A stretch of DNA of 64,000 nucleotides. It comes from a bacterium (lineage in GTDB: Bacteria; CAYTYR01; UBA6262). This document shows positions 43,411-64,000 of the stretch, one piece after another. The position numbers and the translations under genes were made by a program. Each line of letters begins with the position of its first letter. Positions within the stretch are counted from its first letter, which is position 1. The DNA is taken from NCBI GenBank assembly GCA_028712365.1, contig JAQTQE010000004.1, positions 13,806 through 77,805 on the forward strand. Direction: 5' to 3'. The notes under the pieces were generated by a model. The model did no database searches. It was not told the DNA's origin and saw only the letters and a list, made by a program, of their open reading frames with translations.

Positions 43411-43653
43411 ATGCTGAGCAACTTAAAAGATCTGGTAGAATATATTGTTAAAGCCTTAGTGGATGAACCTGATAAGGTGAGTGTTAACGAAGTATTAGGA
43501 GAGCAAGCCGTAGTATTGGAATTGCGGGTATCCCAGCCGGATATCGGTAAAGTGATCGGTAAACAAGGCCGGATAGTGAAAGCCATCCGGTTATTATTGG
43601 GAGCCGCGGGATCAAAAGCTAAGAAACGTATTGTCTTGGAGATCATTGAGTGA
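43411..43653 (+). CDS. KH-domain RNA-binding protein (YlqC/UPF0109 family)
   Basis: KH motif [13 protein letters not shown]. Conserved rpsP-KH-trmD order. I moved the start to the ATG at 43411. Confidence 0.75.
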
Positions 43654-44414: not shown

Positions 44415-44477
44415 GAACTGTTTCTCGTATTGACCGGCAACTCGAGCGCTGGCGCACTTAAAAAAAGGAGTAGAACA

Positions 44478-45847: not shown

Positions 45848-45853
45848 GAGCAG

Positions 45854-46741: not shown

Positions 46742-46753
46742 AGGGACACCTTA

Positions 46754-47734: not shown

Positions 47735-47753
47735 ATCAGGAATAGGAGTAACT

Positions 47754-48182
47754 ATGCAGGAATCTTTTAAAGAAATGATCAAGGAACTAAAAACTTTTTT
47801 CGCGCCGGAAAACATGTATTTCAACCAGGATCTGCAGTTTGTTAAGACCAGGATGGTAGTAACGGAAGAAAAACTGGCGCCGTTATTGGCAATATTGGAT
47901 AAATTTTATAAGGGTCCTTTTAAGCCGGCCGGAGAAAAGCCAGCCAGGGAAATGGGTGACCTGGAAGTGATCCAGGCTTTGAATGGTATCAGGAAAGAAC
48001 AAACCTTGTATCTAAATACCAATGATGCTGAATATGTTTATTTCGCGGCGATCTGGCCCTGGCAGAGCGATCCGTCACAAGCCAGTCTTTTTCTTGGTTT
48101 GCATTTTGGAGGTCTTTTGACTCCCGCCCGAAAAGTATTAATGGAAAACACGAAAAAGGAACTGGAAGCCGTTGTCCAATAA
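47754..48182 (+). CDS. hypothetical protein
   Basis: 142 aa starting at the ATG with AGGAG RBS. No recognisable motif. Confidence 0.4.
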   Translation: MQESFKEMIKELKTFFAPENMYFNQDLQFVKTRMVVTEEKLAPLLAILDKFYKGPFKPAGEKPAREMGDLEVIQALNGIRKEQTLYLNTNDAEYVYFAAIWPWQSDPSQASLFLGLHFGGLLTPARKVLMENTKKELEAVVQ

Positions 48183-49299: not shown

Positions 49300-49312
49300 G
49301 ATTTGTAAATTT

Positions 49313-50002
49313 ATGAAAAGGCGAACCATGTTTAGTAAAAAACTATTTTCCATACTGGCCATAACTCTGGCTGTATCCTGGCTGCTGCCGCGCTTTCTTA
49401 TGGCGGAAGAAGAAGCTTTGATCAGGGAAGAATTGAATGAGCGGGGTAAATCCGGGGCCAAACGGCACATGCTCATTTTCAGCGGCGGAGGATATTTGGG
49501 GCGGAACAAACTTTTAGCTGGATATGAAGATTACACTGATAACTATTCCGGCCATTTGGAAGTGCGCATGGGCTTGGCCGCGGTTAAGGAGCGGCCGGAT
49601 ATTGTCATTAGCCTTAATTATGATTTTATGCCGCTGATCTTGCCTGATGGTATATATGGTATGAGTGAAAATATTATTTCCATTAACCTGAATGCCTATT
49701 ATGTTTTTTACGCCCAGCGAAAACTTAATTTCTTTGCCGGCCCTGGTATCGGTTACTATTTTGATACGCTCACTATGGATACGCCGGCCAGTGGCAAATT
49801 AGAGCATCAATACCGGTTTGTCGGATATAATTTAGGTGTCGGCGCTCAGTATTACTTGGATAAATTCATTACCCTGATACCCTTGTTGAAATACCATCAG
49901 ATCAATGAGCCTGGTTCTTTTAAGGCGAAACATTTGGTCTTTCAAGTCGGTTTTAACTACAATTTCGCAGGAACGGATTGGAATAAATGGAAAAAAGACT
50001 AA
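49313..50002 (+). CDS. small outer-membrane beta-barrel protein
   Basis: 229 aa. Signal peptide. Aromatic-rich alternating strands (GYNLGVGAQYY, FQVGFNYNF). Confidence 0.5.
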   Translation: MKRRTMFSKKLFSILAITLAVSWLLPRFLMAEEEALIREELNERGKSGAKRHMLIFSGGGYLGRNKLLAGYEDYTDNYSGHLEVRMGLAAVKERPDIVISLNYDFMPLILPDGIYGMSENIISINLNAYYVFYAQRKLNFFAGPGIGYYFDTLTMDTPASGKLEHQYRFVGYNLGVGAQYYLDKFITLIPLLKYHQINEPGSFKAKHLVFQVGFNYNFAGTDWNKWKKD

Positions 50003-50928
50003 TAACCATTACAACTATGATCCTGGTTGCTCTTACCGGTTGTGATAAGAAAACCACGCCGGTATTGAATGAGCCATCCAGTTCGATCTATGCCATCAGC
50101 GGAGTTTGTACGCAGGTCGAGACCAAGGATTTTCCCAACGCGCGGGCGTTCTGTTCTATTACTGACCAGAATAATTCTCCTTTATTTGATTTTGCCAAGG
50201 GCAATTTCAGCATCGCTGAAGAAGGTAAGCCGGTGGTAGTGGAAGAAGTCAAGAAAGTGGACAATAATGAAGACCCGCTGTCCGTGGTACTGGTACTTGA
50301 CCGTAGTGGCAGTATGAGTGGTACGGCAACCTCTAACCTGGATATCGCGGCTACTAACTTCATCAACAAGCTAGGGGTGAAAGATGAATGTGAAATAGTG
50401 AATTTTGATGATTCGGTAAAAGTGAGCCAGGTTTTTACCAGCAATCATCAATTGCTGGAAAAGGGTATCTCTGATTACGCTGATCTGGGAGGAGCCACGG
50501 CGTTCTTTGATGCTGTAGGACAGGCAGCCACTGATCTCAGTTCCCGTAATGGGCGGAAATTCATTCTGGCCATGACTGATGGATATGAGAATTCCAGCGT
50601 AAACTATCCATATGCTGATCCACTTCATCCTGATCCGACAGCGATCAAAGCTTACGTTAACAGCAAAGGATTATCGGTTTTTATAGTTGGCCTGGGTTAT
50701 GAAATTGATAAGGATATGCTGCGGGAACTGGCAACTGACACGGGAGCGCGTTATTTTGAAGCGACATCTTCCTTTGAACTGGACAACTTGTACCAGCAAG
50801 CTTTAACTCAGTTTAACAATGAAATAGTCATCAAGTTTCGTAGTTTAAGCAATGGCGCGCGCAATTTACGGGTTTATATGAATTACGGTAGTTTTACCCA
50901 ATCCTTTGAAAAGAAATATTCTAATTAG
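49987..50928 (+). CDS. von Willebrand factor A domain lipoprotein
   Basis: 313 aa. Lipobox LTGC. MIDAS motif LVLDRSGSMSG. Confidence 0.75.
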   Translation: MEKRLITITTMILVALTGCDKKTTPVLNEPSSSIYAISGVCTQVETKDFPNARAFCSITDQNNSPLFDFAKGNFSIAEEGKPVVVEEVKKVDNNEDPLSVVLVLDRSGSMSGTATSNLDIAATNFINKLGVKDECEIVNFDDSVKVSQVFTSNHQLLEKGISDYADLGGATAFFDAVGQAATDLSSRNGRKFILAMTDGYENSSVNYPYADPLHPDPTAIKAYVNSKGLSVFIVGLGYEIDKDMLRELATDTGARYFEATSSFELDNLYQQALTQFNNEIVIKFRSLSNGARNLRVYMNYGSFTQSFEKKYSN

Positions 50929-51011
50929 ATGATCCAACTAATTTCATAGATATTTAATAAATCGTACTACTCAGTGTGGAATGGTAATATGGATTTCATT
51001 GTTTCTATTTA

Positions 51012-51046
51012 AAGGCAATTCTCTAATTAAGGGAGTTGCCTTTTTG
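51012..51046 (+). terminator. terminator-like hairpin after the vWA gene
   Basis: AAGGCAA...TTGCCTT stem followed by TTTTGTATTT. Sequence-related to the def leader hairpin. Confidence 0.45.
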
Positions 51047-51062
51047 TATTTAAGGAGGATGT

Positions 51063-51737
51063 ATGAAAAAACTATTCTTTATGACCTTATTGCTTTTAAT
51101 AGGTGTTTTAGCCTATATGAATAACCCTGGCTATGCTTTTACTTTTCTAGATGAACGCACTAAAAGCGTGGGCAAAGACACAGTTGAATATACAATGGAG
51201 ATGGCTAATCCCGTAGTAAATGGTAATTTGAAATATGAAAATGATAAGTTTAAAATTCATTTTGCTATTCGCTTTCATGGTATTGATATGATTATATACA
51301 ATAAGACTGGCAATGCTATAAAACTTGACTATGGTTTATGGGCCTTTAATTATACTAATAATAAGTCTTATAAAGTATACAATTATGTTGGGACTGACGC
51401 AGGTAATAAAAATGCCCCGCCTTTTACTATTGTTGCGCCGGGATCTACCTATAAAGGAGGAGTAACCACAGAGATCAATAAATTTAATATAAGAAAACCG
51501 CAAAACCTTTATAATACATTGATCTTTCCTACAACTGAATATGTGGCCAATGTTGAGAATCCCGAGCCACCTCTTTCATACAAAGGAAAGTCATTCTCTC
51601 TCTCCATGCCTTTGACTATCAATGGAGTTAAAGAAGATTATACCTTCACCTTTAAGATAACGGATGTTAAGATAATAAAGTATGAAAAACAGTGGAAAAA
51701 GGAAGGCGGTTGGTCTAAATCGAAAAAAGCGAAATAA
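51063..51737 (+). CDS. secreted hypothetical protein (low GC)
   Basis: 224 aa. Signal peptide. Lys-rich C-terminus. GC about 30%. Confidence 0.45.
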   Translation: MKKLFFMTLLLLIGVLAYMNNPGYAFTFLDERTKSVGKDTVEYTMEMANPVVNGNLKYENDKFKIHFAIRFHGIDMIIYNKTGNAIKLDYGLWAFNYTNNKSYKVYNYVGTDAGNKNAPPFTIVAPGSTYKGGVTTEINKFNIRKPQNLYNTLIFPTTEYVANVENPEPPLSYKGKSFSLSMPLTINGVKEDYTFTFKITDVKIIKYEKQWKKEGGWSKSKKAK

Positions 51738-51816
51738 CGTGTTTAACGAATATTTTAAAAGAATAATAGATGTTTTAGTCATAGTTGGTTATTAAATGGA
51801 AAGAAGGAAAATTCTT

Positions 51817-52389
51817 ATGAAAAAGGTCCTAGGTTCTTTTTTCCTATTAATTAGTTTGTGTTCTTCTTTATACGGATTTGAGCGGGATACAAACTATGAC
51901 ATTGCTGTTAGTAGCTTCAGCCGTGCAGATATTATACGAGTTTTTAAATACGCTGTTCATTTTAATGAAGTATTTAAAATCAGTACATATGGTGATGAGA
52001 ATTACACAAAGATTAGAAAATTACTTGAACTTTATGATGAAATGATTCTTGCTCCATACTATCGAGGAAGTGTTGAAATTCTATCAAAAAGTAATGATCA
52101 AGAATTAACGCTCGAAATGCTTAAACTATTAATTTCCTATGAGAATTCAGCGGATGAAGAATTATCCTATGGATTAGCTGAGGTGTATGCAAAGAACCCT
52201 AATCTAATTGAAACAACAGTAAAGGAATTTAATATCGAAATACAGAAAGGATTAACTAAAAGACTAGAGGAGTCCTTAAGGCTATTAATAGAAAATAAGG
52301 AAAGGCCAAACATAGAATTACTTCGAAAACGACTTAGGGCTTTTATTGAAACTATTGCTGGGTCAGAAGGCAACGGGGTAAGCCCTTGA
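51817..52389 (+). CDS. secreted hypothetical protein (low GC)
   Basis: Signal peptide MKKVLGSFFLLISLCSS. No motif. Confidence 0.4.
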   Translation: MKKVLGSFFLLISLCSSLYGFERDTNYDIAVSSFSRADIIRVFKYAVHFNEVFKISTYGDENYTKIRKLLELYDEMILAPYYRGSVEILSKSNDQELTLEMLKLLISYENSADEELSYGLAEVYAKNPNLIETTVKEFNIEIQKGLTKRLEESLRLLIENKERPNIELLRKRLRAFIETIAGSEGNGVSP

Positions 52390-52528
52390 AATATGAAGCA
52401 GCTAAGAATTAGAGAAGCTAACATCTTAAGTTTTTGTTGACAAATATATGCTTATAAGATATAAAGATACCCTTTAACCCGGAATTTGCAATAGGATTTG
52501 GAATTCGTCGAAAAATCGCTTTGTCTTT

Positions 52529-52585
52529 TCGTCTAAAAAATCGCGAACATACCGCTGCGAGTATGCTCGCACTTTTTTGAGACGA
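52529..52585 (+). terminator. long imperfect hairpin plus T-tract upstream of comM
   Basis: Inner stem GCGAACATAC/GTATGCTCGC followed by TTTTTT. Outer stem TCGTCTAAAAAA/TTTTTTGAGACGA. Confidence 0.5.
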
Positions 52586-52682
52586 AAATACTGCGCGCTT
52601 TCCCGTCTCGGTTCGTCAAACCTATTGTAAAATCCGGGTTTAGTCAAAAGGGTATTTTTCTTTTATCCACTAAGGAGTCTTC

Positions 52683-54215
52683 ATGTTAGCCAAGGTATTA
52701 ACCAGCGCGGTATTGGGCATAGATGCTTATATTATTAAGGTGGAAGTGGATATCAGCAAAGGCCTGCCGGCTTTCAATATAGTCGGCTTGCCGGATACCA
52801 GCGTACGGGAGAGCCGAGACCGGGTAATGTCTGCGATCAAAAACAGCGAATTGGAATTCCCAACTAAACGTATGACCGTAAATATGGCTCCGGCTGATAT
52901 CAAAAAAGAAGGAGCCAGTTTTGACCTGGCAATAGCTATCGGTATCCTGGCGGCTCACGGCCAGGTACGGACGGATAAATTAAAAGATTATGTTTTTCTG
53001 GGTGAACTGGCTCTGGATGGTTCGATCAGGCAGGTACGTGGCGTCTTGTCTATCGCCTTAGCCCTGCGCCAGGAAAAGGTCAAGGGCATTATTGTTCCGG
53101 AGCATAATAAAACTGAGGCCGGAGTGATAGAAAGCCTGGCTGTATATCCGGTAACCCATTTACGGCAGGTAGTTGATTTCTTGAACAACGAAAGCAAACT
53201 GCCCAAGTTTAAATTTAACCTGCAGGAAGCATTTGAGCGCAATTGCCGGTATGAAGTAGATTTTAGCGATGTGAAAGGACAGATGTTCGCTAAACGGGCT
53301 TTAGAAGTGGCTGCGGCTGGCGGCCATAACATTCTGCTTATCGGCAGCCCCGGGTCAGGGAAGACCATGCTGGCGAAAAGACTGCCGACCATTTTACCGG
53401 ATATGTCGTTAGAAGAAAGCATTGAAACTACTAAAATACACAGTGTTTCGGGTAATTTGGATGGGCTGTCATTAGTAGCGACCAGGCCATTTCGTTCGCC
53501 GCATCATACGATCAGTGATGTCGCCCTGATCGGCGGGGGGACGTATCCCAAACCAGGGGAAGTAAGCTTGTCGCATAATGGCGTGCTTTTCCTGGATGAA
53601 TTACCTGAATTCCACCGCAATGTCCTGGAAGTGCTCAGGCAACCCTTGGAAGACGGGGTAGTGACCATCTCCAGGGCAGTGACTAGTTTAACCTATCCAG
53701 CTAAATTCATGATGGTGGCGGCGATGAATCCGTGCCCCTGCGGATATCATGGGGACAGTAAGCAGGAATGCCTTTGCTCTGTTTTCAAGGTCCAGAAATA
53801 CCTTTCCCGGGTTTCCGGACCTTTGCTGGACCGGATAGATATCCACGTGGAAGTGCCGCGGCTCAAATTCACGGAAATGAACAATGAAACGCCTGCTGAA
53901 AGCAGCGCCGCGGTCAAGGAAAGGGTGAACCAGGCCAGGGCTATCCAGCAACAACGTTTCCAGAAAGAAAAAAATATATATTGTAACGCCCATATGCAGC
54001 CAAAACACTTGAGAAAATACTGCCAGCTCACTGTTGAAAGCCAGGAATTGCTCAAAAATGCCATTAACAAGCTGAATCTTAGCGCCCGTGCTTATGACCG
54101 CATTTTAAAGGTGGCCAGGACCATAAGCGACTTGGAAAACCAGCCCCAGATCCAATCCAATCATATTGCCGAAGCCCTGCAATACCGCAGCCTGGATAAG
54201 AATTTGTTTGCCTGA
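52683..54215 (+). CDS. comM: Mg-chelatase-like AAA+ ATPase ComM/YifB
   Basis: 510 aa. N-terminal Lon-SSD-like region, MCM-type AAA+ (Walker A GSPGSGKT) and C-terminal ChlI region. Confidence 0.9.
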   Translation: MLAKVLTSAVLGIDAYIIKVEVDISKGLPAFNIVGLPDTSVRESRDRVMSAIKNSELEFPTKRMTVNMAPADIKKEGASFDLAIAIGILAAHGQVRTDKLKDYVFLGELALDGSIRQVRGVLSIALALRQEKVKGIIVPEHNKTEAGVIESLAVYPVTHLRQVVDFLNNESKLPKFKFNLQEAFERNCRYEVDFSDVKGQMFAKRALEVAAAGGHNILLIGSPGSGKTMLAKRLPTILPDMSLEESIETTKIHSVSGNLDGLSLVATRPFRSPHHTISDVALIGGGTYPKPGEVSLSHNGVLFLDELPEFHRNVLEVLRQPLEDGVVTISRAVTSLTYPAKFMMVAAMNPCPCGYHGDSKQECLCSVFKVQKYLSRVSGPLLDRIDIHVEVPRLKFTEMNNETPAESSAAVKERVNQARAIQQQRFQKEKNIYCNAHMQPKHLRKYCQLTVESQELLKNAINKLNLSARAYDRILKVARTISDLENQPQIQSNHIAEALQYRSLDKNLFA

Positions 54216-54518
54216 TATTTATATGATTGAATAAATCGCTTGACCATTTTGATTTATTATTTGTGAAGGAGTTTGTTTTAATTTATAAATTAAATCTAAT
54301 AGAAATAGGACTACCATAATAATTATTGAATAGCGAAATCAATTAGGATTTCTTAGCCTTGTATCCATTACATAATTTTATGAACAGCTTGACTAATTGC
54401 CTTTTTTGTGGTAATAATTTATTAGTAGCTTAATGAGTTTATAAAAAGGGTTCAAATATTTATGCGGGAGGAAAGAATTCTTTTTATGTACTCATTTAAT
54501 ACTAAAAATTGTTTATAT

Positions 54519-54559
54519 TAACCAACTACATAGTAAAATGTGGTTGGTTATATTTTTAG
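54519..54559 (+). terminator. terminator-like hairpin in the AT-rich comM-downstream spacer
   Basis: TAACCAACTACAT/ATGTGGTTGGTTA 13-bp stem with one mismatch, followed by TATTTTTAG. Confidence 0.45.
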
Positions 54560-54589
54560 TATCGATATTTTAAAACAAGGGGAGGAATT

Positions 54590-55168
54590 GTGAAGAAGGT
54601 ATTGTTTTTTGCATTGTTAATGCTCATGGCAAGTGTTCTGTGGGCTGAAGAGTCAACAGCCCAAGGCACAAAAAAGATTGGTATAGGATATTTTGACAAT
54701 GGCTTGGATCTTGTTTACTGGAAAAACGAGCATAAAGGGATTCAGGCTAATGTCAAGCTATCTGCAAGCAGATTGGGCGACGTATATGATTACGGTAATA
54801 CACAGAACAGTTGGGATTATCGCATCAGATTTGCATTTTTAAGAAAAGTAAAGGAATACGATTTTCTTAAGATTTCGATAGCTTATGGCATAAGCTGGAG
54901 TGATGTAAAAAGCGTACAGAATGCAGATTATTCAATGTACACAAGAACGGCAGTATTACAAGTCGGGCCTATATTTGAAATATTCATGCCTTTTTGTAAA
55001 AACTTATGTTTAGCCAGTGACTTGAAGCTTAATCTTGGCATTACCGTTAGAACTCACGACATACCTGCGAACATGACAACGACTCCAAGAAGGTCCAATA
55101 CCGAAAGTATATATTTTAGCGGCACAGGATTTACCTTGGATACGGTTTCAATAAGGTATTATTTCTGA
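54590..55168 (+). CDS. small outer-membrane beta-barrel protein
   Basis: 192 aa. GTG start. Signal peptide. Ends ...IRYYF. Confidence 0.5.
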   Translation: MKKVLFFALLMLMASVLWAEESTAQGTKKIGIGYFDNGLDLVYWKNEHKGIQANVKLSASRLGDVYDYGNTQNSWDYRIRFAFLRKVKEYDFLKISIAYGISWSDVKSVQNADYSMYTRTAVLQVGPIFEIFMPFCKNLCLASDLKLNLGITVRTHDIPANMTTTPRRSNTESIYFSGTGFTLDTVSIRYYF

Positions 55169-55181
55169 GAAAGAGGATAAG

Positions 55182-56090
55182 ATGATAAAGTTTAAACGAA
55201 ACAAATTTGTATTTATGTTTTTGCTTACGGCCTCGATTCTGCTTGCTTATAATGTTTACGCCGAAAATAACAATCCTGACTATTCCACCAAAGAATCGAA
55301 ATACAAGAAGCATAAGCACGTTAAGAAAAGAGTGAAAGAAATAGAGCGATCGGGAGAGAATTCTGTTCCGAGCCTCATAAGATTATTAAATGATGATGAC
55401 CCAGATACTAGAATATCTGCCATGTCAAGTCTGGGGCGGATAGGAAGTAAGAAAGCAATAGCTCCAATTATAAAATTAATGGAAAATGATAAGGATGATA
55501 ATATAAGAATAAGCGCCGCAACTGTCTTGGGTTATTTAAGTGGAACAGAAGCAATTCCAGCTCTCAAGAAAGCCTTATCAGATAGTAATAAAATGATCCA
55601 AATAAGAGCAGCCGGCTCTCTTGGTATGCTTAACGACGGCTCTGGTTACGCAATTATATTTGGTTATAGCGAGGATGCGGATATCAATGTAAAAGCCAAT
55701 GCTTTGCAGGCTTTTGGCCTTATTGCGGATGAGCGAGCTATTTCTATACTGGGAAAGTACAAGGATGATAATAATTATCGTCTTAGGAAAGCCGCATTAA
55801 TATCTATCAGGCAAATTGGGATTGCCAGAGAGTACAGGATTGCCTTACAGAAAAATGGTAAAAAGGTGGCAGATTATAAGAAGCTTTCCTTGCTTGAATA
55901 TTCTTTATCCGATACCAATCCCATTATAAGAAAGTGGGCGTTGAGAACTCTGATTTTGAGAATAGATGAAAAGGAAGTGGTGGAACTACTTGTAAAAATT
56001 GCCAATAATGACAAGAATCCTTCCCAAGACAACGTTATGGAGGTTCTCAAGAATTATAACATTGCCTTTGATAAGAGAAAGAAGAAATGA
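55182..56090 (+). CDS. secreted HEAT/PBS-lyase-repeat protein (paralog-like of 45854..46741)
   Basis: 302 aa. Signal peptide. Repeated DxxxRxxAxxxLGxxG units. Confidence 0.55.
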   Translation: MIKFKRNKFVFMFLLTASILLAYNVYAENNNPDYSTKESKYKKHKHVKKRVKEIERSGENSVPSLIRLLNDDDPDTRISAMSSLGRIGSKKAIAPIIKLMENDKDDNIRISAATVLGYLSGTEAIPALKKALSDSNKMIQIRAAGSLGMLNDGSGYAIIFGYSEDADINVKANALQAFGLIADERAISILGKYKDDNNYRLRKAALISIRQIGIAREYRIALQKNGKKVADYKKLSLLEYSLSDTNPIIRKWALRTLILRIDEKEVVELLVKIANNDKNPSQDNVMEVLKNYNIAFDKRKKK

Positions 56091-56518
56091 GGAAGAATAA
56101 TTTCCTTTACCGTGTTTTGTTTTTCTTATTAATGTTCTTAGATAGTAATTGCATCGCTGGGGAGAGTCAAATGCAGGTTAGATTGTGGAAAGAATTATCA
56201 ACAGTGAATTTATCTGAATTAAATAGTTATATTAATAGTTTGTCCCTGCTTGCAGATGGGGCGACAGTTCCTTCCATTGATACAATAAAAACTGGAGAGG
56301 CCTCAGGTTGTAGATATGCCCGGATTTCTAAAATGAAACAAAAAGAGAACAATGATACGGCTTTAGTAACAATAACAAACGGCGACCTATTAAGAGATTT
56401 GCTTGGAAACGATATTGTATGTGATTATAGCGGGATAACAATATCCATTTCAGCTAATTTGAGTTTTGAAAGGCAGGAAGATGAAAAAGGCATTGCTTGT
56501 TACATTCTTAATATTTAA
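56087..56518 (+). CDS. secreted hypothetical protein
   Basis: 143 aa. Signal peptide. No motif. Confidence 0.35.
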   Translation: MRKNNFLYRVLFFLLMFLDSNCIAGESQMQVRLWKELSTVNLSELNSYINSLSLLADGATVPSIDTIKTGEASGCRYARISKMKQKENNDTALVTITNGDLLRDLLGNDIVCDYSGITISISANLSFERQEDEKGIACYILNI

Positions 56519-57170
56519 TTTAATAACAATAGCTAAAGTAGGCTCTTGCGAATATACATGGCACCTATTCACAAGTACGCCACCTATTAAGGGAAAAGTT
56601 ATTGATTCGGTTACTGGGGAACCAATCAAAGACGCTATATTGGTGGTGAGATGGTTTAAAGCTAAACCTGCTATTGTGGATACTGCAGACAGCGTTATTC
56701 TTGAAAAAGGCTTTATAACCGATAGTAAGGGAGAATTTACCATCCCTAATAAAATTAATATGCATTTTACTTCCTGGTTTGCCGGGATGGGGATAGGAGT
56801 CATGCATCCTTCATACAGTATTCTGGTTACCGGCCTATCAGACGAGCGAAACAGCCTTTTTTATGCGGATTCAGAATTTAAGAAAGGGATTATCATTGCT
56901 ACTCTCAAGCTGACAAAATTAACTGACAAATATATAAAGCCAGAAGATAATATTAATTTACTTGAAGAGTTCAGCGAAATATTTCCTAAATGCTATTCTT
57001 TGTATTTCAAATGGGCCAAGAAACTGAAGGTTAATACTAATAAAGAAGCTGTATTTAGAAACTGGGATCAAATAATTAACAGATTCCCGGGTGCCCCTAA
57101 ACATCTTGACTTAACTATTGATATAGAAAACGAAAAATCCTTAATTAATAATATAGGGAATGGAGAGTAA
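56481..57170 (+). CDS. secreted hypothetical protein with carboxypeptidase-regulatory-like N-domain
   Basis: GKVIDSVTGEPIKDAILVV resembles the CarboxypepD_reg fold. Start taken at MKKALLV. Confidence 0.4.
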   Translation: MKKALLVTFLIFNLITIAKVGSCEYTWHLFTSTPPIKGKVIDSVTGEPIKDAILVVRWFKAKPAIVDTADSVILEKGFITDSKGEFTIPNKINMHFTSWFAGMGIGVMHPSYSILVTGLSDERNSLFYADSEFKKGIIIATLKLTKLTDKYIKPEDNINLLEEFSEIFPKCYSLYFKWAKKLKVNTNKEAVFRNWDQIINRFPGAPKHLDLTIDIENEKSLINNIGNGE

Positions 57171-57172
57171 TA

Positions 57173-60100
57173 ATGAGGAAAATCATTTTATTTTTAACTT
57201 TATTTATGATTTTGAATTTGTTCTCATTAACTAATCTTTGGTCACATAGTGCAACTGTCGTTCATCCCAAATTATCTGATAAAGCCGTCAGTAATTTAGA
57301 TGCCTTCTTTAATGAGGTTAAGACATATAAAAATCAGATTAAACAAGGGAGCATTGATGAAGATACTCCTATTTGGCAGGTGCTAAATCATTTTTATAAT
57401 CCTATAAATGGTGCCGGTTTTCCAGGAGGAATGCCTACAAACCAGTATGTAAAAGATATATGGGATGCATCAATTTACGAATATTCACAAGGGAATAAAA
57501 CGGAAGCCTATTACCTGTTAGGAAAAGTTGCTCATTTGGTTCAAGATATGTCTGTCCCGGCACATGTTCATATAGACTCGCATTTATTTGGAGATGATTA
57601 TGAAATTTGGTGCAAGGGGCCTGGTGAAACTGGTAGTAATATAATCGGATGTGTTAATACAGCAGAAGGCTATATTACTGTATCTGGCTATGAGGATGCA
57701 ATTGAGCAAATGGCAAGGCTGGGTTATGATTCTTCGAGATTTGAGGCGACATTATATGCTGATTCCAGATCAGTTGATGAAAATTGTGAATTGGCAAAAA
57801 TGTTCCCGGGCTCTATCAGATACATAGTTCCGCTTGACGCTAATACTTTAGATAATGGATTCTGGGAAATTGATAACATTGGGAATTATGATGGAGTGGA
57901 AACCGATAATGGCAGCAATGACTGGTGGGAGATAGATGAATATATTGGCTGGTTCTATATAGAGAATATTGGAGGGGATAGTTATCCAGTAGCTCCCGAA
58001 CAAATAAGAAGTGATATCACCAACCCAAGTACAAATTCGTCAATGGTAAGCAATACCAAATCATTGTACCAACTTTTTGCGGAACAATTAATCCCTTTAC
58101 CCATAAAATATTCCACAGGCTTACTGAAATATTTCTACGATAATCGTCCGCAAATCGTTTATCCTTCAAAGGTAACTAATTTAACGGCAACATCTACTGT
58201 TGATAGCGTTTCTCTTATTTGGGAAGCAGCAACAGAAGGAGCTGCGGTTAAAAACTATGCAATTTATAGAGATAACAGTTATGTAGGTCAAACAAATTCA
58301 ACCACACTGACATTTACTGATATGGGCAGGAGTGCAAACACCATATATGAGTACGAAGTTAGTGCTATTGCGGAAAACGGATTAGAAGGTGAAAAGACAG
58401 GTATAATGGTTGTTACTCAATCTCAGCCCGGCAGCAATGAACCAGTCCCAGTGATAATGAACCAAATTTCCAATATTACTGAGACTACAGCTGTTCTAAG
58501 CTGGTCACAAAGCAATGACGGTAATTTCAAAGAATACAGGATTTATCGTTCCCAGGGAAGTGGTGTTAGTGAAAATTCCACTCTAGTCACAACTATTACA
58601 TCAAGAGCCATTACAGCTTTTACTGACATTGGTTTATCAGAAGCAACAACATATTATTACCGTGTTTACGTATTCAACACTCAAGATTTATCTGCAAAGA
58701 GCAATGAGGTGTTTGCACGAAGTATCGGCAATACAATTCCTGATTTCGCAGTTTCTCCAGAAGACATAAGTATGCAATCAACAAATCCTAATCCTGGAGA
58801 TATTGTTACAATAAATGCTATAATCCACAATATTGGGCAAATACCTCCTGATGACGAAATTGTTGTAAGATTCTATGATGGAGACCCGGCAAATGGCGGA
58901 ATCCTAATTGGTGAAGATAAAAAAAGTTTCTGTTGGGTATTCGGGGGAGATGCCTCTGACACCTATGGAGTTGATTGCGGAATCATAGTTGATGATAATT
59001 TAGAAAAAAGATTATATTTAAGTGATACAAGTTTCCAATTATTCGGCCCAAATAACATTGACCTTGAAGGCAGTAATAGTGCAGGAGGCAAATATTACAC
59101 AGATAATTGTTTAACTGTTGATTTTAATAACGGGGCATGGCAAAATGTTAACATAACTCCTACCCCTCACATAGTCAAGGCATATGATAGTGGATTCATT
59201 CATGTAAGAGTATCCGTTTCGGGTGACTTTGATAGTGGTGGTCACTTTAAGGCTAATTTCCATATACGAGGTCGCAAGGCTAGAGATAATAATCAACCAA
59301 TAGAAGCCTCAGTTAACTGGAATACAAGTAACAGAACCGGTTCCCATGACATCTATGTAGTAGTGGATCCTGATAATATAATAACATCAGAAGTTAACAA
59401 GGGCAATAATATAAGCCATAAGCGTATAAACATTGGTCCCGATAAGCCTGATTTGAACATTACATCAAATGATATAAGCTTCACCAGGGAAACCCTGGAT
59501 GTTACAATTAAGGCAAAAATATCCAACACGAATAATATCGAAGCTAATAATGTGAAGGTGAATTTCTATGACGGGTTGCCTTCTAATAATATTCTTATAG
59601 GAAGCACGACTATACCTAAAATACCCATTCCTCTTCTATCAGGTTCAAAGTCAGGGGATGACTGGGCAACCATGGAAACCGGCATCTTCCAATTGGTAAT
59701 CACTTCAAGCACTGTAGATAATGGAGGCCTGGCACCTGGGACTTATACGGCGCTTAAAAAGAACTGGATATATTCTAATATTTCTTACGGAGATAATTTG
59801 CCTATAAATGTTAATCCGGAAGTGACTGCTAGCCATCACAACAATACTCTGGAAATTTATGAAAAAACTGCCACGGGTTTCAAGACACGAATCTGGACAT
59901 ACGCCGATATATATCAGCCCGGGGTGGCTTTCTCTTATAGGCCGTGGCTATATACCAAAGACCAAATTACTTTCGACTGGTCATTGCCAGAGTATAATAG
60001 TGTGGCGCAGGTTAGTTGGAATATTAACGGATTGTCAGGTAGCCACGACGTTTACGTGGTAGTGGATCCTGATGATAGCATTTCAGAAGTTCAAGAAGAT

Positions 60101-62056
60101 AATAATACTGCCTCAAAATCGATTACTTTTGAAAATCAACCTCCTAATATTCCAGTTGCTCCTTCAGGGCCGATTTCAGGCTATACTACTGAAATTTATA
60201 GCTTTAGCACCTATTCTTCTGATATAAATGGAGATAAGATTAAGTTTGTATTTGATTGGGGAGATGGGACAACCACCGAGACTGATTATGGCGATTATGA
60301 TTACACCGGTAAAGTGATCATGAGTGCCTCGCACACCTGGAGTAGTGAAGGAATATACGATGTAAAAGTCCAGGCAATTGACACTTCTAATTCTTCCACT
60401 GATTTTAGTGAGCCCCTTAAAGCTACCTTGATTCAAAAGTCAGGTTGGGGCTCGGATAATCCAATTACTCCTGGCACAAGAATTGACCGGTTCCCTGAAG
60501 TTGATTCCGATAACTCTGGAAATGTACATATTGCTTGGTTCGGCAAAGGAAGTACGGGAAACATTTATTATCGAAGGCTGATAAATAACGGAAACACATG
60601 GAATGACGAGAGCGACTTTGGCACGGTAACATTAAATGACACTCATTTGCCTATTATAAGAAGCGATAAAACAAGCTCTTTGCAATTGTTATGGGACGAT
60701 TATAGAGCGACCGGGAATTTTGAAATATACAGGAAAACAAGTTCAGATCAAGGATTCTCCTGGACATATCCAGACGAGAATTTCAGTTATACCACAGCTA
60801 ATTCAAGGTTTCCAAGTATTGCAATCAACGGCCAAACCATTCACGCCGTTTGGGCCGAGGGAAATAAAATTCATTATAAGAAAAGCTCAAACGGAGGAAC
60901 AACCTGGTCAAATCCTAGTACCATAATTACAACACCGTTTTTTAATGTTAATAGTAGACTTAATCTTGTTTGCGATTCAACAAGTAATGTGTTTTTAGTC
61001 TGGGCAGGTCAAATGCCGAACGTTGCCTGGGCGATTAAGAATGCGTATTTTTCTTATAGCAAAGATAATGGCAATACATGGCAATCTACCCAAACAATAT
61101 ATTCTGATACTAGTTTTGCAGGTTTTGAACTTAATCCTGATATTACTGTAGATTCATCAAGTAATATTTATATTGTCTATGACACGAAGAGTAATCAAAT
61201 ATTTTATAGAACAGGTGCATGGTCAGGCGGGAATATGGTATTATCCAGTCCAGCGGTGTTAGTATCTGATATCCATAATTCGCAGTATCCGAATATAAGG
61301 GCAGATAGGTCAAACAATTTATATCTGTTCTGGCAAAATGCAAGGGATGGCAACTACGAAATCTATAATAAGTTCAGAAAGGCAGGTGAAACTACTTGGG
61401 GAGCCGATACAAGATTGACTCAGGCAGCGGGAGATTCTTTATATCCCAAGGCAAGTATTACCGGGGGTTATTTGCATTTGGTCTGGCAGGATAATCGTAA
61501 TGGTAATTATCAGATTTATTACAATAGAATGCGTTTACGTCGTGCGCCTTGGGTGATAGATTTTTCTGCGCCTCATTTTGATGTTCCACCATATGATGAA
61601 AGTGTTCCGCCTTATGAAAACAATGATCCTAACCAAACAGCAATATCATTTAAAGTGCAAGATGATACTTATAATAAGCATACAGTGTCAGTATGGGTAT
61701 ATAATGTTAATGGTACCAGTGTGATAAAAAAGCTCATTACTGATCAAATAATCAATTTAGATTCTAATTCTGATCTTAACTGGCCATATATGAAAACTTT
61801 CACTGATTTCGTTATTTGGGATGGGAGAGATGAAAACGGTAATTTTGTGTCAGAATCAACTTCATATAAAGTAAAAATTAGTGTCAGAGCAGTTGATGAT
61901 CCGACAATAGAACCGATTGATGGATTGCCTGGCTTAATTGGCACAAATTGGACAAACATCGATACCACTGATCAAGAATATATTTTTACTGATCCGACCT
62001 TTGTACAGCCTAATCGCAAAAACATCAAAGCTTGGCACGAGTTTATACGGCAATAA
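57173..62056 (+). CDS. giant secreted multidomain protein: Zn-dependent phospholipase C/P1-nuclease-like domain, FN3 x2, CARDB-like, PKD, BNR/sialidase-like propeller, FlgD-Ig-like C-terminus
   Basis: 1627 aa, GC about 33%. The mature N-terminus begins WSH, as in PLC where W1 ligands Zn. AHLVQDMSVPAH gives H, D at +4 and H at +10 with the same spacing as the clostridial alpha-toxin Zn site. FN3 (TYEYEVSA). PKD (FDWGDGT...HTW). Four SxDxGxTW BNR motifs. C-terminal WDGRDENGNFV of FlgD-Ig-like domains. Confidence 0.65.
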   Translation: MRKIILFLTLFMILNLFSLTNLWSHSATVVHPKLSDKAVSNLDAFFNEVKTYKNQIKQGSIDEDTPIWQVLNHFYNPINGAGFPGGMPTNQYVKDIWDASIYEYSQGNKTEAYYLLGKVAHLVQDMSVPAHVHIDSHLFGDDYEIWCKGPGETGSNIIGCVNTAEGYITVSGYEDAIEQMARLGYDSSRFEATLYADSRSVDENCELAKMFPGSIRYIVPLDANTLDNGFWEIDNIGNYDGVETDNGSNDWWEIDEYIGWFYIENIGGDSYPVAPEQIRSDITNPSTNSSMVSNTKSLYQLFAEQLIPLPIKYSTGLLKYFYDNRPQIVYPSKVTNLTATSTVDSVSLIWEAATEGAAVKNYAIYRDNSYVGQTNSTTLTFTDMGRSANTIYEYEVSAIAENGLEGEKTGIMVVTQSQPGSNEPVPVIMNQISNITETTAVLSWSQSNDGNFKEYRIYRSQGSGVSENSTLVTTITSRAITAFTDIGLSEATTYYYRVYVFNTQDLSAKSNEVFARSIGNTIPDFAVSPEDISMQSTNPNPGDIVTINAIIHNIGQIPPDDEIVVRFYDGDPANGGILIGEDKKSFCWVFGGDASDTYGVDCGIIVDDNLEKRLYLSDTSFQLFGPNNIDLEGSNSAGGKYYTDNCLTVDFNNGAWQNVNITPTPHIVKAYDSGFIHVRVSVSGDFDSGGHFKANFHIRGRKARDNNQPIEASVNWNTSNRTGSHDIYVVVDPDNIITSEVNKGNNISHKRINIGPDKPDLNITSNDISFTRETLDVTIKAKISNTNNIEANNVKVNFYDGLPSNNILIGSTTIPKIPIPLLSGSKSGDDWATMETGIFQLVITSSTVDNGGLAPGTYTALKKNWIYSNISYGDNLPINVNPEVTASHHNNTLEIYEKTATGFKTRIWTYADIYQPGVAFSYRPWLYTKDQITFDWSLPEYNSVAQVSWNINGLSGSHDVYVVVDPDDSISEVQEDNNTASKSITFENQPPNIPVAPSGPISGYTTEIYSFSTYSSDINGDKIKFVFDWGDGTTTETDYGDYDYTGKVIMSASHTWSSEGIYDVKVQAIDTSNSSTDFSEPLKATLIQKSGWGSDNPITPGTRIDRFPEVDSDNSGNVHIAWFGKGSTGNIYYRRLINNGNTWNDESDFGTVTLNDTHLPIIRSDKTSSLQLLWDDYRATGNFEIYRKTSSDQGFSWTYPDENFSYTTANSRFPSIAINGQTIHAVWAEGNKIHYKKSSNGGTTWSNPSTIITTPFFNVNSRLNLVCDSTSNVFLVWAGQMPNVAWAIKNAYFSYSKDNGNTWQSTQTIYSDTSFAGFELNPDITVDSSSNIYIVYDTKSNQIFYRTGAWSGGNMVLSSPAVLVSDIHNSQYPNIRADRSNNLYLFWQNARDGNYEIYNKFRKAGETTWGADTRLTQAAGDSLYPKASITGGYLHLVWQDNRNGNYQIYYNRMRLRRAPWVIDFSAPHFDVPPYDESVPPYENNDPNQTAISFKVQDDTYNKHTVSVWVYNVNGTSVIKKLITDQIINLDSNSDLNWPYMKTFTDFVIWDGRDENGNFVSESTSYKVKISVRAVDDPTIEPIDGLPGLIGTNWTNIDTTDQEYIFTDPTFVQPNRKNIKAWHEFIRQ

Positions 62057-62074
62057 AAATACTGGAGGGATAAA

Positions 62075-63376
62075 GTGATCTGGAGAATAAAACCAGTTCT
62101 ATTTGTGTTTATTTCAGCTCTTCTACTTGCTAAACTGTCATTTGCCGATGAGTTAATAGATAATGCCTGGAAGGCGATGCAAGAAGAAAAATATGAAAAC
62201 GCGAACAAAATAGCGCAAGATTGCTTGACCAAATTCATGAATAAGGCCAAAGAACAACAGGGAACATATAGGCAAAAAGCCTTGAAAAAGCAGCAAAGAA
62301 AACAAACCAACGCCAGGATAGCTTTGCTAGGAGATCAGCAAAACGTTTTAACTGAAGAAGATATGCCGAAGAATTTGATTGAAGATCAAGTGGTTTCACT
62401 TGGCTCAGACGAGCTTAATTCAGCCGGTACCGCTTGTTTTATTCAAGGTGAAGTATTAAAAAAAGCTGGGAAAAAGGATGAAGCTAGGAAGAAATATAAA
62501 GAGATAGTTGATAATTATAAAGATGCGTATTGTTACGATCCGAGGGGATGGTACTGGAAGGTGTCAGACGTAGCCCAAGACCGGATAGATGTAATGGATA
62601 CCAAGTATGACTATTCTGATTACACTAGCGAGACTTTAACCGGAAAAGGGTGGAAGTCTTTGAAAGACAAAGACTTCAAGGGCGTAGAACTATATGCCAA
62701 GAAATGCATTTATCTTTATGAGCAAAAAGCAGATGAAATGCAGACAAACACAAAAGGGTTTGTCAAAGACAAAAAAGACGCTCCATATAAATGGGCCTTA
62801 AACGACGTAGCTACCTGTTATTTTATTATGGGAGAGAAATATCTGCTTGAAGGCAAGGATGATCTATCAAAACAGATGTACAAACGAGCTGCTGAACTTG
62901 GGTTCTCATTATGTTGGGACCCACAAGGGTGGTATTGGAAAGTGGGAGAAGTGGCTCAGGATAAGATAGATCTCTACGGCACCAAATATAGCTTTGGAGA
63001 TTATAAATCAGTTACTTTAACCAGTAATGCCTGGCAAGCATTGGCAGATAAAGATTATAAAGGTGTGGATCTGTACTGCAAGAAATGCATTTATCTTTAT
63101 GAAGACAAGGCAAAAGAAATGCAAGCTCAAATAACCGAGTTTCCTAAAGGTAGTTTTGTCCCTTATTACTGGGCTTTAAATGATGTCGCAACTTGCTATT
63201 TCATCATGGCCGAGTCTTATAAACAGCAAAACATGGTTTCCCAAGCTAAACAATATTTGATGACAATAAGCGATCAATTCTCTTTTGCTCAGTGTTGGGA
63301 TAAGCGCGGTTGGTATTGGCAGATAGCAAAAGCCAGCCAGAAATCGTTAGAAGAAATGCAAAAACAAAATCCGTGA
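62075..63376 (+). CDS. secreted protein with internal 125-aa tandem repeats
   Basis: 433 aa. GTG start with GGAGGG RBS. Signal peptide. 2.5 copies of a repeat C(Y/W)DPxGWYWKV..VAQDxID...CKKCIYLYE...WALNDVATCYFIM. Confidence 0.5.
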   Translation: MIWRIKPVLFVFISALLLAKLSFADELIDNAWKAMQEEKYENANKIAQDCLTKFMNKAKEQQGTYRQKALKKQQRKQTNARIALLGDQQNVLTEEDMPKNLIEDQVVSLGSDELNSAGTACFIQGEVLKKAGKKDEARKKYKEIVDNYKDAYCYDPRGWYWKVSDVAQDRIDVMDTKYDYSDYTSETLTGKGWKSLKDKDFKGVELYAKKCIYLYEQKADEMQTNTKGFVKDKKDAPYKWALNDVATCYFIMGEKYLLEGKDDLSKQMYKRAAELGFSLCWDPQGWYWKVGEVAQDKIDLYGTKYSFGDYKSVTLTSNAWQALADKDYKGVDLYCKKCIYLYEDKAKEMQAQITEFPKGSFVPYYWALNDVATCYFIMAESYKQQNMVSQAKQYLMTISDQFSFAQCWDKRGWYWQIAKASQKSLEEMQKQNP

Positions 63377-63479
63377 AATAGAAAGACCTTTAATTCTATC
63401 ATATTATCGTGCCAGGTCCTGACTTGTATTTATTCTAAAAAAACTCTCAGGACCTATTTATTTTTGGGAGAGCCTGGCA

Positions 63480-64000
63480 ATGAAAAAATGTTTGATCATC
63501 TGTTTTTTAATTGTTATTTCAATAAAAGCTTATGGACAGACAAAGCCATCTGAAAGCGATTTACACGCGAGAATCACAGTCCCATCTCCATATTCTCTGA
63601 TAAGAGGAGATGTGCCAATCTACGGAATCGCTGGCGGTAAAGACTTTAAGGAATACAAGTTGGAATATGGCTCAGGGGAGAATCCAAGCGTCTGGACAAC
63701 CATTTTGGTATCCAGTCAAGAGCAGGTTAAAGAAAGCAGTGTTCCTAAGATAGATTTCTCCCTGGATAAGACTATTCCCGGGAATTTGGGTATTTGGGAT
63801 ACCGGCTTGTCAGAATACCAATACGGGGAACATAAGGTTGATCTGCCCATAGGGATCTATACTCTTAAACTTACGGTTAAGGATAAATCAGGAAATATTG
63901 CCGAAGACCGGGTAATAATTGAAGTAGGCCGGGTAATAATTAACTCGGTTGCCGGCAAAGTGGAAAGTCCTGATGGACAGGCAATTCATGAGATACCTGA
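63480..64000 (+). CDS. secreted hypothetical protein (5' partial, runs off window end)
   Basis: ATG at 63480 with a signal peptide MKKCLIICFLIVISIKA. The open frame continues to the window end. Confidence 0.4.
   Translation, partial: MKKCLIICFLIVISIKAYGQTKPSESDLHARITVPSPYSLIRGDVPIYGIAGGKDFKEYKLEYGSGENPSVWTTILVSSQEQVKESSVPKIDFSLDKTIPGNLGIWDTGLSEYQYGEHKVDLPIGIYTLKLTVKDKSGNIAEDRVIIEVGRVIINSVAGKVESPDGQAIHEIP

Follow-up and report, generated by a model that had tools for sequence, protein, structure and literature searches.

A low-GC insertion downstream of comM in an uncultured bacterium, probably part of a strain-variable genomic island of exported protein genes

Introduction

Immediately downstream of comM the DNA analysed here becomes AT-rich, which raises the question of whether this stretch was acquired and, if it was, how it came to lie against the 3' end of comM. 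The original prediction for the window (the whole stretch of DNA that was analysed, 64,000 nucleotides) was horizontal acquisition, by analogy with other bacteria in which comM is an integration hotspot. Tn6022/AbaR and integrase-bearing mobile genetic elements insert inside comM and inactivate it (PMC11014353, PMC4774983), and the analogy holds in that an island is located at comM, but it does not extend to the outcome, as the known elements inactivate comM and here comM is intact. Acquisition at comM was supported by our analysis, in which neither uniform composition nor conserved gene order was found. Genes for secreted and outer-membrane proteins make up the AT-rich stretch after comM, which is a genuine insertion; from position 54225 to the window end it is likely to represent the proximal portion of a genomic island that varies between strains and is inserted at the comM 3' end. 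The features discussed are collected in Table 1.

Table 1. Coordinates of the features at and around comM, in positions of the window
Feature	Position	Strand	Details
Low-GC insertion between VWA gene and comM	50931..52674		1.74 kb, GC 0.333
Orphan exported protein, 224 aa	51063..51737	+	GC3 0.316; signal-like N-terminus
Orphan protein, 197 aa	51796..52389	+	GC3 0.247; no match in family search
comM/yifB	52683..54215	+	510 aa, intact; GC 0.487, GC3 0.546
Repeat R	53733..54255	+	Last 483 nt of comM plus about 40 nt; second copy outside the window
Junction core, 38 nt	53733..53770	+	TGCCCCTGCGGATATCATGGGGACAGTAAGCAGGAATG; codons Cys346-Cys358 (CPCGYHGDSKQEC)
Low-GC island, proximal part	54225..64000	+	Runs past the window end; absent from L172
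Island-side junction motif	54225..54259	+	GATTGAATAAATCGCTTGACCATTTTGATTT...; starts where empty-site homology ends
Small outer-membrane beta-barrel (predicted), 192 aa	54590..55168	+	AF2, Foldseek
Exported HEAT-repeat protein, 302 aa	55182..56090	+	HEAT_2 E=8e-32
Orphan exported protein, 143 aa	56087..56518	+	Signal-like N-terminus; conserved in other samples
Exported protein, 229-234 aa (229 aa in pipeline call)	56466..57170	+	VGSC motif
Secreted multidomain protein, 1627 aa	57173..62056	+	Pfam, PDB match
Exported TPR-like protein, 433 aa	62075..63376	+	TPR_6 at threshold
p723 (MDD5131374), 723-aa exported all-beta protein, start	63480..64000	+	Ends about 65652 (L081, P0069)

Base composition of the comM region

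The GC content was 45.8% (0.458) for positions 1-50930, which we refer to as the core, in comparison to 48.7% (0.487) within comM and 37.3% (0.373) in 54216-64000 (0.374 for 54225-64000). All 9.8-kb windows of the core fell within 0.446-0.470, the 1-kb windows of the island within 0.345-0.395, and the 374-nt spacer 3' of comM had a GC content of 0.246. The computation thus confirmed a sharp drop at the island edge (0.487 to 0.373), the predicted level of roughly 30-35% being slightly low in comparison to the 1-kb windows. The low GC downstream of comM was likewise confirmed, although it is not restricted to that side, as 50931-52674 upstream of the gene has a value of 0.333; with low-GC blocks on both sides, comM is a normal-GC gene between them.

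The same composition was found at the level of genes and of oligonucleotides. The GC3 value was 0.499 +/- 0.039 (minimum 0.424) for the 49 core genes in comparison to 0.25-0.385 for the nine low-GC genes on both sides of comM (z about -3 to -6.5; Mann-Whitney p = 2.6e-6), including 0.38 for the last gene in the window (63480-64000). Karlin delta* was 78-81 over 55-65 kb in comparison to 10-37 in the core, and the tetranucleotide L1 distance was 0.29-0.34 in comparison to 0.11-0.14, both distances being more than twice the core maximum. The composition of the window is therefore not uniform, and the atypical base composition by which genomic islands are recognised was seen in GC, GC3, delta* and tetranucleotides. 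The low GC extends at least 1.3 kb beyond the window end, in contig L081.

Empty and occupied sites in related genomes

To place the island, we compared the window with related contigs. The 57-kb contig L172 is collinear with window segments 43614-50930 and 52675-54224 at 77-84% nucleotide identity, which makes it a related genome and not a conspecific strain. It carries no island: comM is followed by a 180-aa gene, a BamD-like gene, an HTH gene (HTH_3), dprA, topA and xerC, with a uniform GC of about 45%. The comM of the window aligns end-to-end with its homologues, has 84% nucleotide identity and zero indels in comparison to that of L172, and matches the Pfam families ChlI, Mg_chelatase and Mg_chelatase_C with E down to 2e-97; homology to L172 ends at 54224, 9 nt beyond the comM stop codon. 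The ancestral order, kept in the relative, is yraN ... VWA - comM - 180-aa gene - BamD-like - HTH - dprA - topA - xerC.

In other related contigs, different cassettes were found at the same position. In L171, island genes p528 and p650 lead to a 79-codon comM remnant (81% nucleotide identity) and then to p187, BamD-like, HTH_3, dprA, topA and xerC, a native right flank collinear with L172. In L166, the giant protein has a different head, the genes that precede the TPR gene are replaced, and an IS200-type (Y1) transposase is present; L164 carries yet another cassette. The gene order is consequently not conserved among relatives, the island being absent from L172 and different in L164, L166 and L171, as expected of a genomic island. 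Scans for comM in GTDB species genomes and JGI metagenomes gave closest matches of only 65% and 63% identity, hence no close synteny; the best metagenome match (L084) belongs to a 66% GC genome and was uninformative, and an exact look-up returned no record for comM and protein P0050.

The comM 3' duplicate and the junctions

The search for att-like repeats yielded a duplicate of the comM 3' end (53733-54255, repeat R), with the second copy lying outside the window, on a different contig of the same MAG, and with further copies in other samples; no att-like direct or inverted repeats were found within 44-64 kb. The cargo lies on the 82,416-bp contig that holds MDD5131364-74 in this MAG (locus-tag prefix PHH44). 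In the window's own MAG the second copy, comM' (MDD5132219), is a 165-codon copy of the comM 3' end on a separate 29,851-bp contig, where it is preceded by an XRE-type HTH gene and adjoins the native downstream genes. Consecutive accessions on this contig (topA MDD5132214, HTH_3 ...216, BamD-like ...217, comM' ...219, XRE-HTH ...220) give a gene order that matches L172 and L171. An intact target gene in the window is thus accompanied, by accession order, by a truncated duplicate abutting the native flank, the pattern of integrative elements that restore their target gene, and in L171 the 79-codon remnant, collinear with L172, also adjoins the native flank. The duplicated comM 3' piece appears, on the basis of these gene orders, to mark the far end of the island.

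All comM 3' duplicates start at the junction core (53733-53770). In L164 and L165 the sequence switches from the HTH arm to comM exactly at 53733 (Cys346), the coding part of R being 100% (L164) and 99.8% (L165) identical and the flanks unrelated; L171 and L166 have decayed 39-nt copies (23/39 and 25/39 matches, p<=1e-5), and the HTH arm is joined to comM at the same nucleotide in all four contigs. The near-identical strain L082 differs from the window by 1 nucleotide in 2,020 to the left of 53733 (0.05%) in comparison to 20 in 320 to the right of it (6.25%), the divergence beginning at 53744. On the island side, the motif GATTGAATAAATCGCTTGACCATTTTGATTT follows comM in the window and L081 and follows comM' in L164 and L165; it is unique in the window and absent from L172.

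The comM remnants have lengths of 165, 79 and about 13 codons depending on the contig, which one clean site-specific event does not explain and which counts against our proposal. Both copies of R in the window's MAG are the same allele, so that gene conversion or a very recent event is needed; the comM copy of JGI sample 3300037067 has the allele R2. L164, L165 and L166 could represent attP or circular forms and, just as well, tandem arrays. In favour of the proposal, the 90% cluster contains a single recorded comM 5' part. The comM 5' part was found joined to the cargo through the 483-nt exact repeat in the NCBI contig only. The Logan/JGI contigs break around R (L083 ends at 53531, L082 ends at 54052, L081 starts at 54162 and L170 starts at 54345), and the comM-cargo linkage therefore rests on the repeat resolution of one assembler. 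The internal island sequence was confirmed in two assemblies (L081, L170).

Gene content of the island

Exported cell-surface proteins and hydrolases make up the cargo. All nine low-GC products have a basic and then hydrophobic N-terminus resembling a signal peptide, as read from the translations, in agreement with the prediction of secreted or outer-membrane products; of the several small outer-membrane proteins expected, however, only one (54590-55168) was recovered. For this protein the AF2 model (pLDDT 77) has a signal helix and eight long strands, and the best Foldseek matches were Thermus TtoA, OmpA, CarO, OmpX and OmpW. It has no sequence-family match and only six relatives at E<1e-3 among 1.84 billion representatives, with a conserved C-terminus SIRYYF. 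The signal peptide, the eight modelled strands and the C-terminal aromatic residue suggest an eight-stranded outer-membrane protein.

The HEAT-repeat protein is a distant paralogue of the product of a core HEAT gene at 45854-46741 (34% over 101 aa). Family searches with the 143-aa product that follows gave no match. The next product is probably a lipoprotein, judging from its VGSC motif, and shows a weak CarboxypepD_reg-like similarity, with Pfam matches under the family cut-off. The 1627-aa protein is composed, in order, of a Zn-dependent phospholipase C/P1-nuclease-like head, two fn3 domains, CARDB, PKD and a BNR beta-propeller. Its head matched PF00882 at 31.6 bits in comparison to a cut-off of 26.8 and the phospholipase C of PDB 8cqm at E=1.5e-5, and the sequence contains the zinc-ligand pattern H-x3-D-x5-H (AHLVQDMSVPAH); the head thus has the sequence hallmarks of the Zn-dependent phospholipase C/P1 nuclease fold, with activity and substrate as predictions. 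A full-length search returned fn3-level matches only and no full-length homologue, and a search with the C-terminal half returned generic BNR propellers only. A true relative, in L166, was reached through the neighbouring gene: the C-terminal 690 aa are 53% identical to those of the giant protein of L166, which has a C25 protease head in place of the PLC-like head. Strains have thus exchanged the catalytic head of the giant enzyme, in keeping with diversifying selection acting on exposed structures.

The TPR protein is 69% identical to its L166 orthologue, and in some homologues it is fused with the p723 family. For p723 the AF2 model (pLDDT 83.6) is a chain of beta-sandwich, CBM-like domains. 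Homologues of p723 that carry a name come from 'Omnitrophica' or 'bacterium' MAGs, the 'Omnitrophica' label being also found on one relative of the window's comM; the donor of the cargo may therefore be close kin rather than foreign.

Mobility genes and element types

The search for an integrase, which the prediction had suggested beyond the window, was negative: no integrase or transposase was found in 54225-65652, the window contains no tRNA or tmRNA, and the mobility or tRNA gene typical of genomic islands is accordingly lacking from the visible 11.7 kb. The IS200-type Y1 transposase occurs in the variant L166 only, and the closest recombinase gene is xerC on the far side of topA, which has a housekeeping look. 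No Rfam families were detected in 50-64 kb or in the whole window, and a promoter/terminator scan performed no better than shuffles. Prophage, plasmid-derived and defence-island readings were dropped because the region resembles no plasmid or phage at the DNA level, neither the HTH gene nor the junction core occurs in IMG/VR, and, apart from generic HTH and HEAT matches, the cargo is free of phage and defence families.

Possible origin of the arrangement

The arrangement could be explained if cassettes recombined with comM at a fixed point (codon Cys346), each carrying its own copy of the comM 3' end, with the displaced 3' end staying at the far junction. The cassette would then supply the comM 3' end, so that, as we propose, comM stays whole. 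In the window's genome this would give intact comM followed by cargo, with the native downstream genes behind an XRE-type HTH gene and the 165-codon duplicate, and repeated events with later decay would produce a mosaic array. A more elaborate version, which taken as a whole we regard as rather doubtful, posits an integrase-free family of 10-12-kb cassettes, each bounded by an XRE-type HTH gene and a comM 3' copy, that would home to comM Cys346 (in the conserved CPCGYHG motif) and keep the gene intact, accumulate as tandem arrays between comM and dprA, both of them transformation genes, shuttle giant secreted enzymes with PLC-like or C25 protease heads swapped on a constant CARDB-PKD-BNR stalk, and be mobilised by a host or trans-acting recombinase.

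The island may also be real and yet have arisen by homologous or illegitimate recombination instead of a site-specific recombinase, imported DNA being anchored on the conserved comM 3' end (for example in transformation) with subsequent gene conversion. We give this explanation an appreciable chance, though less than an even one. It accounts for the lack of a visible integrase, for a repeat that is long (483 nt) and perfectly identical, for the unequal remnants and for the conversion-like tract of L082, and the island does lie between two transformation genes, comM and dprA. Against it, four haplotypes from different samples have exactly the same left junction, and two of the four also share a remnant end at about 39 nt ahead of different cargo; a single ancestral junction or a specific site accounts for these shared junctions more readily than a series of random crossovers. 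That the low GC instead reflects fast-evolving, weakly expressed native surface genes that were lost in L172, with no acquisition at all, seems very improbable to us. Orphan and surface genes are often AT-rich, and the named p723 homologues in 'Omnitrophica' MAGs share that label with a comM relative, but the truncated comM duplicate at the native flank of the window's MAG and L171 would not arise from a loss in L172, different cargo at the same junction and the jump in divergence at 53733 are left unexplained, and the dinucleotide signature is unlike that of the core.

An assembly mis-join must be considered as well, in which the chromosome has comM followed by the native flank as in L172, the cargo lies on an excised circle (about 12 kb) or at another locus with an HTH-comM'-cargo arrangement, and the MAG assembler crossed the 483-nt exact repeat reciprocally. 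In an assembly graph, a chromosome and a circle that share R look no different from the integrated form, breaks near R are seen in all unitig-type contigs, HTH-R-cargo is read within single contigs (L164, L165), and both ends of L166 fall within the HTH gene, as expected for a circle or tandem unit of about 10 kb. We nevertheless find a mis-join unlikely, as both MAG contigs cross R in the integrated configuration, for which assemblers normally need read-pair support, the integrated array of L171 ends in a diverged comM remnant unable to confuse an assembler, and no replication or integration gene was seen that would maintain a free circle. Even if it were true, the element would still carry a comM 3' end and be a comM-associated mobile cassette.

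Comparison with known systems

An integrated island at the comM 3' end, our preferred reading, has partial counterparts. As in the Tn7-like Tn6022/AbaR islands of Acinetobacter baumannii, comM serves as the landmark of an island that expands and diversifies at a single locus (PMC11014353, PMC11441513). AbaR, however, interrupts the comM coding sequence and thereby inactivates the gene, duplicates 5 bp of its target and has the genes tnsABC, tniQ and tnsF, whereas in the window comM is an intact 510-aa ORF with empty-site homology to 9 nt past its stop codon, the duplication comprises 483 or more nt of the comM 3' end, and none of tnsA, tnsB, tnsC, tniQ and tnsF was found among the visible products or the related cassettes. 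The mechanism here differs from that of AbaR. The integrase-bearing comM elements of Aggregatibacter, Mannheimia, Francisella and Pseudomonas syringae occupy a fixed orthologous comM position across hosts (PMC4774983), and in our contigs every junction is likewise at one codon, Cys346. Those elements differ in having a tyrosine integrase and disrupting comM, in comparison to no integrase seen and a whole comM here.

A general class of integrative islands, ICEs and prophages uses the end of a tRNA or protein gene as its target and brings a substitute for the 3' end that it displaces; their repeats are usually tens of nucleotides long with an integrase at one end. The window island resembles this class in the intact target at one end, the truncated duplicate at the native-flank end, the possibility of tandem or nested arrays, the atypical composition and the empty site in relatives; it differs in a repeat of about 0.5 kb and an end module that consists only of an XRE-type HTH gene. 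With flexible ('metagenomic') islands, which encode exposed cell-surface structures, it shares low GC, giant surface proteins and a fixed chromosomal place at which surface and secreted proteins are replaced from strain to strain. Flexible islands are usually exchanged through recombination in the conserved DNA on both sides, with no gene fragments left behind as scars; the existence of an empty site without any cargo indicates that the window island, unlike these, is additive.

Genomic islands at a conserved gene are a well-known class, and this one is a fairly ordinary island with an unusual junction; no major open question is changed by the finding or its readings. The locus provides a natural example of the exchange of a surface and secreted-enzyme repertoire at one chromosomal site in an uncultured, poorly sampled lineage. 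An unoccupied site can be set beside several that are filled differently, and the junction within a conserved gene is mapped precisely. Should this junction be a genuine attachment site, it would represent a third way of targeting comM, one that preserves the gene, in comparison to the known elements that knock out this transformation gene. For the head-swapped giant hydrolases, attack or feeding, by contact or extracellularly, are candidate functions in these bacteria.

A separate insertion upstream of comM

The low-GC block between the VWA gene and comM is, judging from the alignment with L172, a small insertion separate from the downstream island: its counterpart in L172 is just 78 bp, the homology ending right after the VWA stop codon and resuming at the comM ribosome-binding site. 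The block is also present in a second sample (L082, 99.1% identity). Its 224-aa product gave zero matches in Pfam, NCBIfam, PHROG and PADLOC and has variants of at least 90% identity in other samples, and a protein identical to its 197-aa product adjoins comM in JGI sample 3300037067.

Low-GC island downstream of comM

The stretch downstream of comM is a genuine strain-variable island encoding exported proteins. GC content was 0.458 over 1-50930, where the 9.8-kb core windows all fell within 0.446-0.470, and 0.487 in comM, in comparison to 0.373 over 54216-64000. GC3 was 0.499 +/- 0.039 in core genes (n=49) and 0.25-0.385 in low-GC genes (n=9), and the dinucleotide signature distance (78-81 in the island, 10-37 in the core) and tetranucleotide distance (0.29-0.34 and 0.11-0.14, respectively) were also atypical. 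The low GC sets in at the comM stop codon and extends at least 1.3 kb past the window end. The original prediction of a GC drop here was thus borne out, although it had overlooked a second low-GC block (0.333) upstream of comM, at 50931-52674.

Every island product carries a signal-like N-terminus, as read from the sequence, which agrees with the predicted secreted or outer-membrane character, while only one product was modelled as an outer-membrane barrel; this barrel is close to being an orphan, since 1.84 billion representatives include just 6 relatives. The head of the 1627-aa giant scored over the cut-off of PF00882, matched PDB 8cqm and contains an H-x3-D-x5-H motif. The genes for the TPR protein and for p723, an all-beta protein, are separate but adjacent in the window, and fusions of TPR repeats with p723 domains in some p723 homologues (P0088, P0090, P0092, P0093) suggest that the two proteins may work together.

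Genes of the island and of the interval between yraN and comM
Feature	Position	Strand	Annotation
yraN-comM interval genes	45854-50928	+	HEAT, 326-aa, 142-aa, MGDG-type glycosyltransferase, OMP_b-brl, VWA
8-stranded OM barrel	54590-55168	+	AF2 pLDDT 77; Foldseek matches TtoA, OmpA, OmpW, OmpX
HEAT-repeat protein	55182-56090	+	
Small exported protein	56087-56518	+	
Small exported protein	56466-57170	+	lipoprotein-like
1627-aa giant	57173-62056	+	zinc phospholipase C/P1-nuclease-type head, fn3 x2, CARDB, PKD, BNR propeller
TPR-like protein	62075-63376	+	
p723 (723 aa, all-beta)	from 63480	+	AF2 pLDDT 83.6: CBM-like sandwiches in chain

Empty site and comM duplicates

An empty site was found in L172, a 57.5-kb Logan contig reached through cluster and contig look-ups from neighbouring proteins. 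This contig, uniform in GC at about 45%, aligns collinearly with the window (77-84% nucleotide identity) over 43614-50930 and 52675-54224, in the order trmD, rplS, rnhB, yraN, HEAT, 326-aa, 142-aa, glycosyltransferase, OMP, VWA and comM, followed by a 180-aa gene, BamD-like, HTH_3, dprA, topA, xerC and rpsB. The comparison demonstrates two insertions in the window, of which the main one comprises everything past 54224, starting 9 nt beyond the comM stop codon. The other is the upstream low-GC block of 1.74 kb between the VWA gene and comM, where L172 has a 78-bp spacer; it holds two orphan exported-protein genes and is flanked by terminator-like hairpins (51011-51043 and 52542-52571). In several distant lineages (L047, L069, L111, L155) yraN directly adjoins comM, while six genes separate them in the window and L172; as their GC is near that of the core, this block has the appearance of an older insertion at this locus, shared across the lineage.

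The far end of the island was approached through the comM 90% cluster, some members of which, 165 aa long, are fragments of the comM 3' end. One of these, MDD5132219 (comM'), is encoded on a contig of 29,851 bp in the window's own MAG, where consecutive accessions, rather than DNA, give the adjacency topA (..214), dprA, HTH_3 (..216), BamD-like (..217), X, comM' (..219) and XRE-HTH (..220), with dprA and X assigned to the intervening positions. L172 has these native downstream genes in the same order, but here they are headed by a truncated comM with an HTH gene before it, so that a comM 3' duplicate stands beside the native flank. In DNA from other samples (L164, L165), a minus-strand HTH gene is followed by a copy of 53733-54255, whose 483 coding nt are 100% and 99.8% identical to the window, respectively, after which comes low-GC cargo unlike that of the window, comprising DUF5683, a 189-aa protein and a C25-protease giant.

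The HTH arm, ending ...GCAACGCGGGGA, joins comM at one fixed nucleotide, in the Cys346 codon (53733), in L164, L165, L171 and L166. The whole comM 3' end follows in L164 and L165, while L171 and L166 retain about 39 decayed nt (23/39 and 25/39 matches, p<=1e-5), in which C-x-C-...-K-Q-E-C can still be read, followed by p528 and an IS200-type transposase, respectively. A 35-nt motif after the stop codon is present in the window and L164/L165, and absent from the L172 empty site. Between the window and L082, which is the same species from a different sample, 1/2,020 positions differ left of 53733 and 20/320 to the right, indicating that the start point of the duplicates also marks a boundary of recombination within intact comM. 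The 3' end of comM has thus undergone allele replacement, with two repeat alleles (53744-54009) that are 6.25% apart in strains otherwise 0.05% divergent. The window's allele is that of the duplicated comM' copies, which suggests that gene conversion may occur between repeat copies.

Cargo variation between strains

Variability among relatives, proposed as a check of the island, was also observed, the region being absent from L172 and carrying other cargo in L164, L166 and L171. A contig from another sample, L170, is 99.8% identical to the window over 54345-58519, while in L166 the identity is 89.6% from 62354 on and the genes upstream are replaced. The L166 giant (1572-5867) has a C25 peptidase head and shares with the window giant the C-terminal 690 residues alone, at 53% identity; the L164 giant (2505-5552) is a third version. 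GC3 of the variant cassettes was 0.2-0.42, in comparison to 0.43-0.55 in native neighbours.

Among the giants, the CARDB-PKD-BNR C-terminal half is common and the catalytic heads are unrelated (phospholipase C-like with fn3 in the window, C25 gingipain-like protease in relatives), with a module boundary at about residue 947 in the window giant. Both ends of L166, a 9.6-kb Logan contig (1-40 and 9086-9625), lie in or beside the same XRE-HTH gene, as a circle of about 10 kb or a tandem unit of the cassette would produce, and the distance between its Y1 transposase and the decayed comM core is about 290 nt.

Possible mechanism and known systems

A cassette made up, in order, of core, comM 3' copy, motif, cargo and HTH would recombine with comM at the core, so that comM is restored while its former 3' end is displaced; mosaics would then arise through repeated events with decay. 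The main caveat is that the integrated form and an empty-site chromosome accompanied by a free circle would have identical assembly graphs: the join from the comM 5' part to the cargo spans a 483-nt exact repeat and is supported by the NCBI contig only, the unitig-type contigs all breaking at the repeat. L171, from a related MAG, shows directly that in this lineage island genes lie between comM sequence and native flank, in the order p723, HTH (minus strand), p528, p650, a 79-codon comM remnant (81% nucleotide identity, a divergence too great for an assembly artefact), p187, BamD-like, HTH_3, dprA, topA and xerC, collinear with L172 from the remnant on. As to the chemistry, homology-anchored recombination is a serious alternative to site-specific recombination; no recombinase is visible in the island part seen, and the xerC situated past topA resembles a housekeeping gene.

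Documented insertions into comM are those of Tn7-like Tn6022/AbaR (PMC11014353, PMC11441513) and, in several proteobacteria, of integrase-bearing elements (PMC4774983); all of them lie within the gene and inactivate it. Here, in contrast, comM is whole and none of those elements' genes were seen in the visible part, so the island does not belong to these families. Its logic is like that of integrative elements that carry a replacement for the target's 3' end, though its repeat is very long and no integrase is visible, and its content is like that of flexible surface-protein islands. The observation of a low-GC module of exported proteins at comM is confirmed and its reading as acquired is supported; the island is ordinary as a class, and what sets it apart is that the junction within comM is precisely conserved, that the duplication preserves the gene and that the giant enzymes have swapped heads.

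Source genome and other features of the window

The window comes from an 82,416-bp NCBI MAG contig (proteins MDD5131364-74, locus tags PHH44_017xx-018xx). The closest comM is 65% identical in one-genome-per-species GTDB and 63% in a JGI metagenome scan, indicating a poorly sampled lineage. XerC at >=90% identity is annotated in an 'Elusimicrobia' MAG, and p723 homologues at 55% identity occur in 'Omnitrophica' MAGs.

Across 1-64000 the plus strand carries all called genes, including every real-looking gene of at least 120 aa, and cumulative GC skew rises monotonically, placing the window on one replichore with complete co-orientation. The 830 nt that separate the priA-like gene from def (37631-38458) are lower in GC (about 0.40) and hold no convincing ORF or Rfam match. 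At 2806-12208, four mutual paralogues (27-30% identity) with other genes in between are, by their paralogy pattern, probably Mur-ligase-like, and the cluster is probably dcw (cell wall/division).
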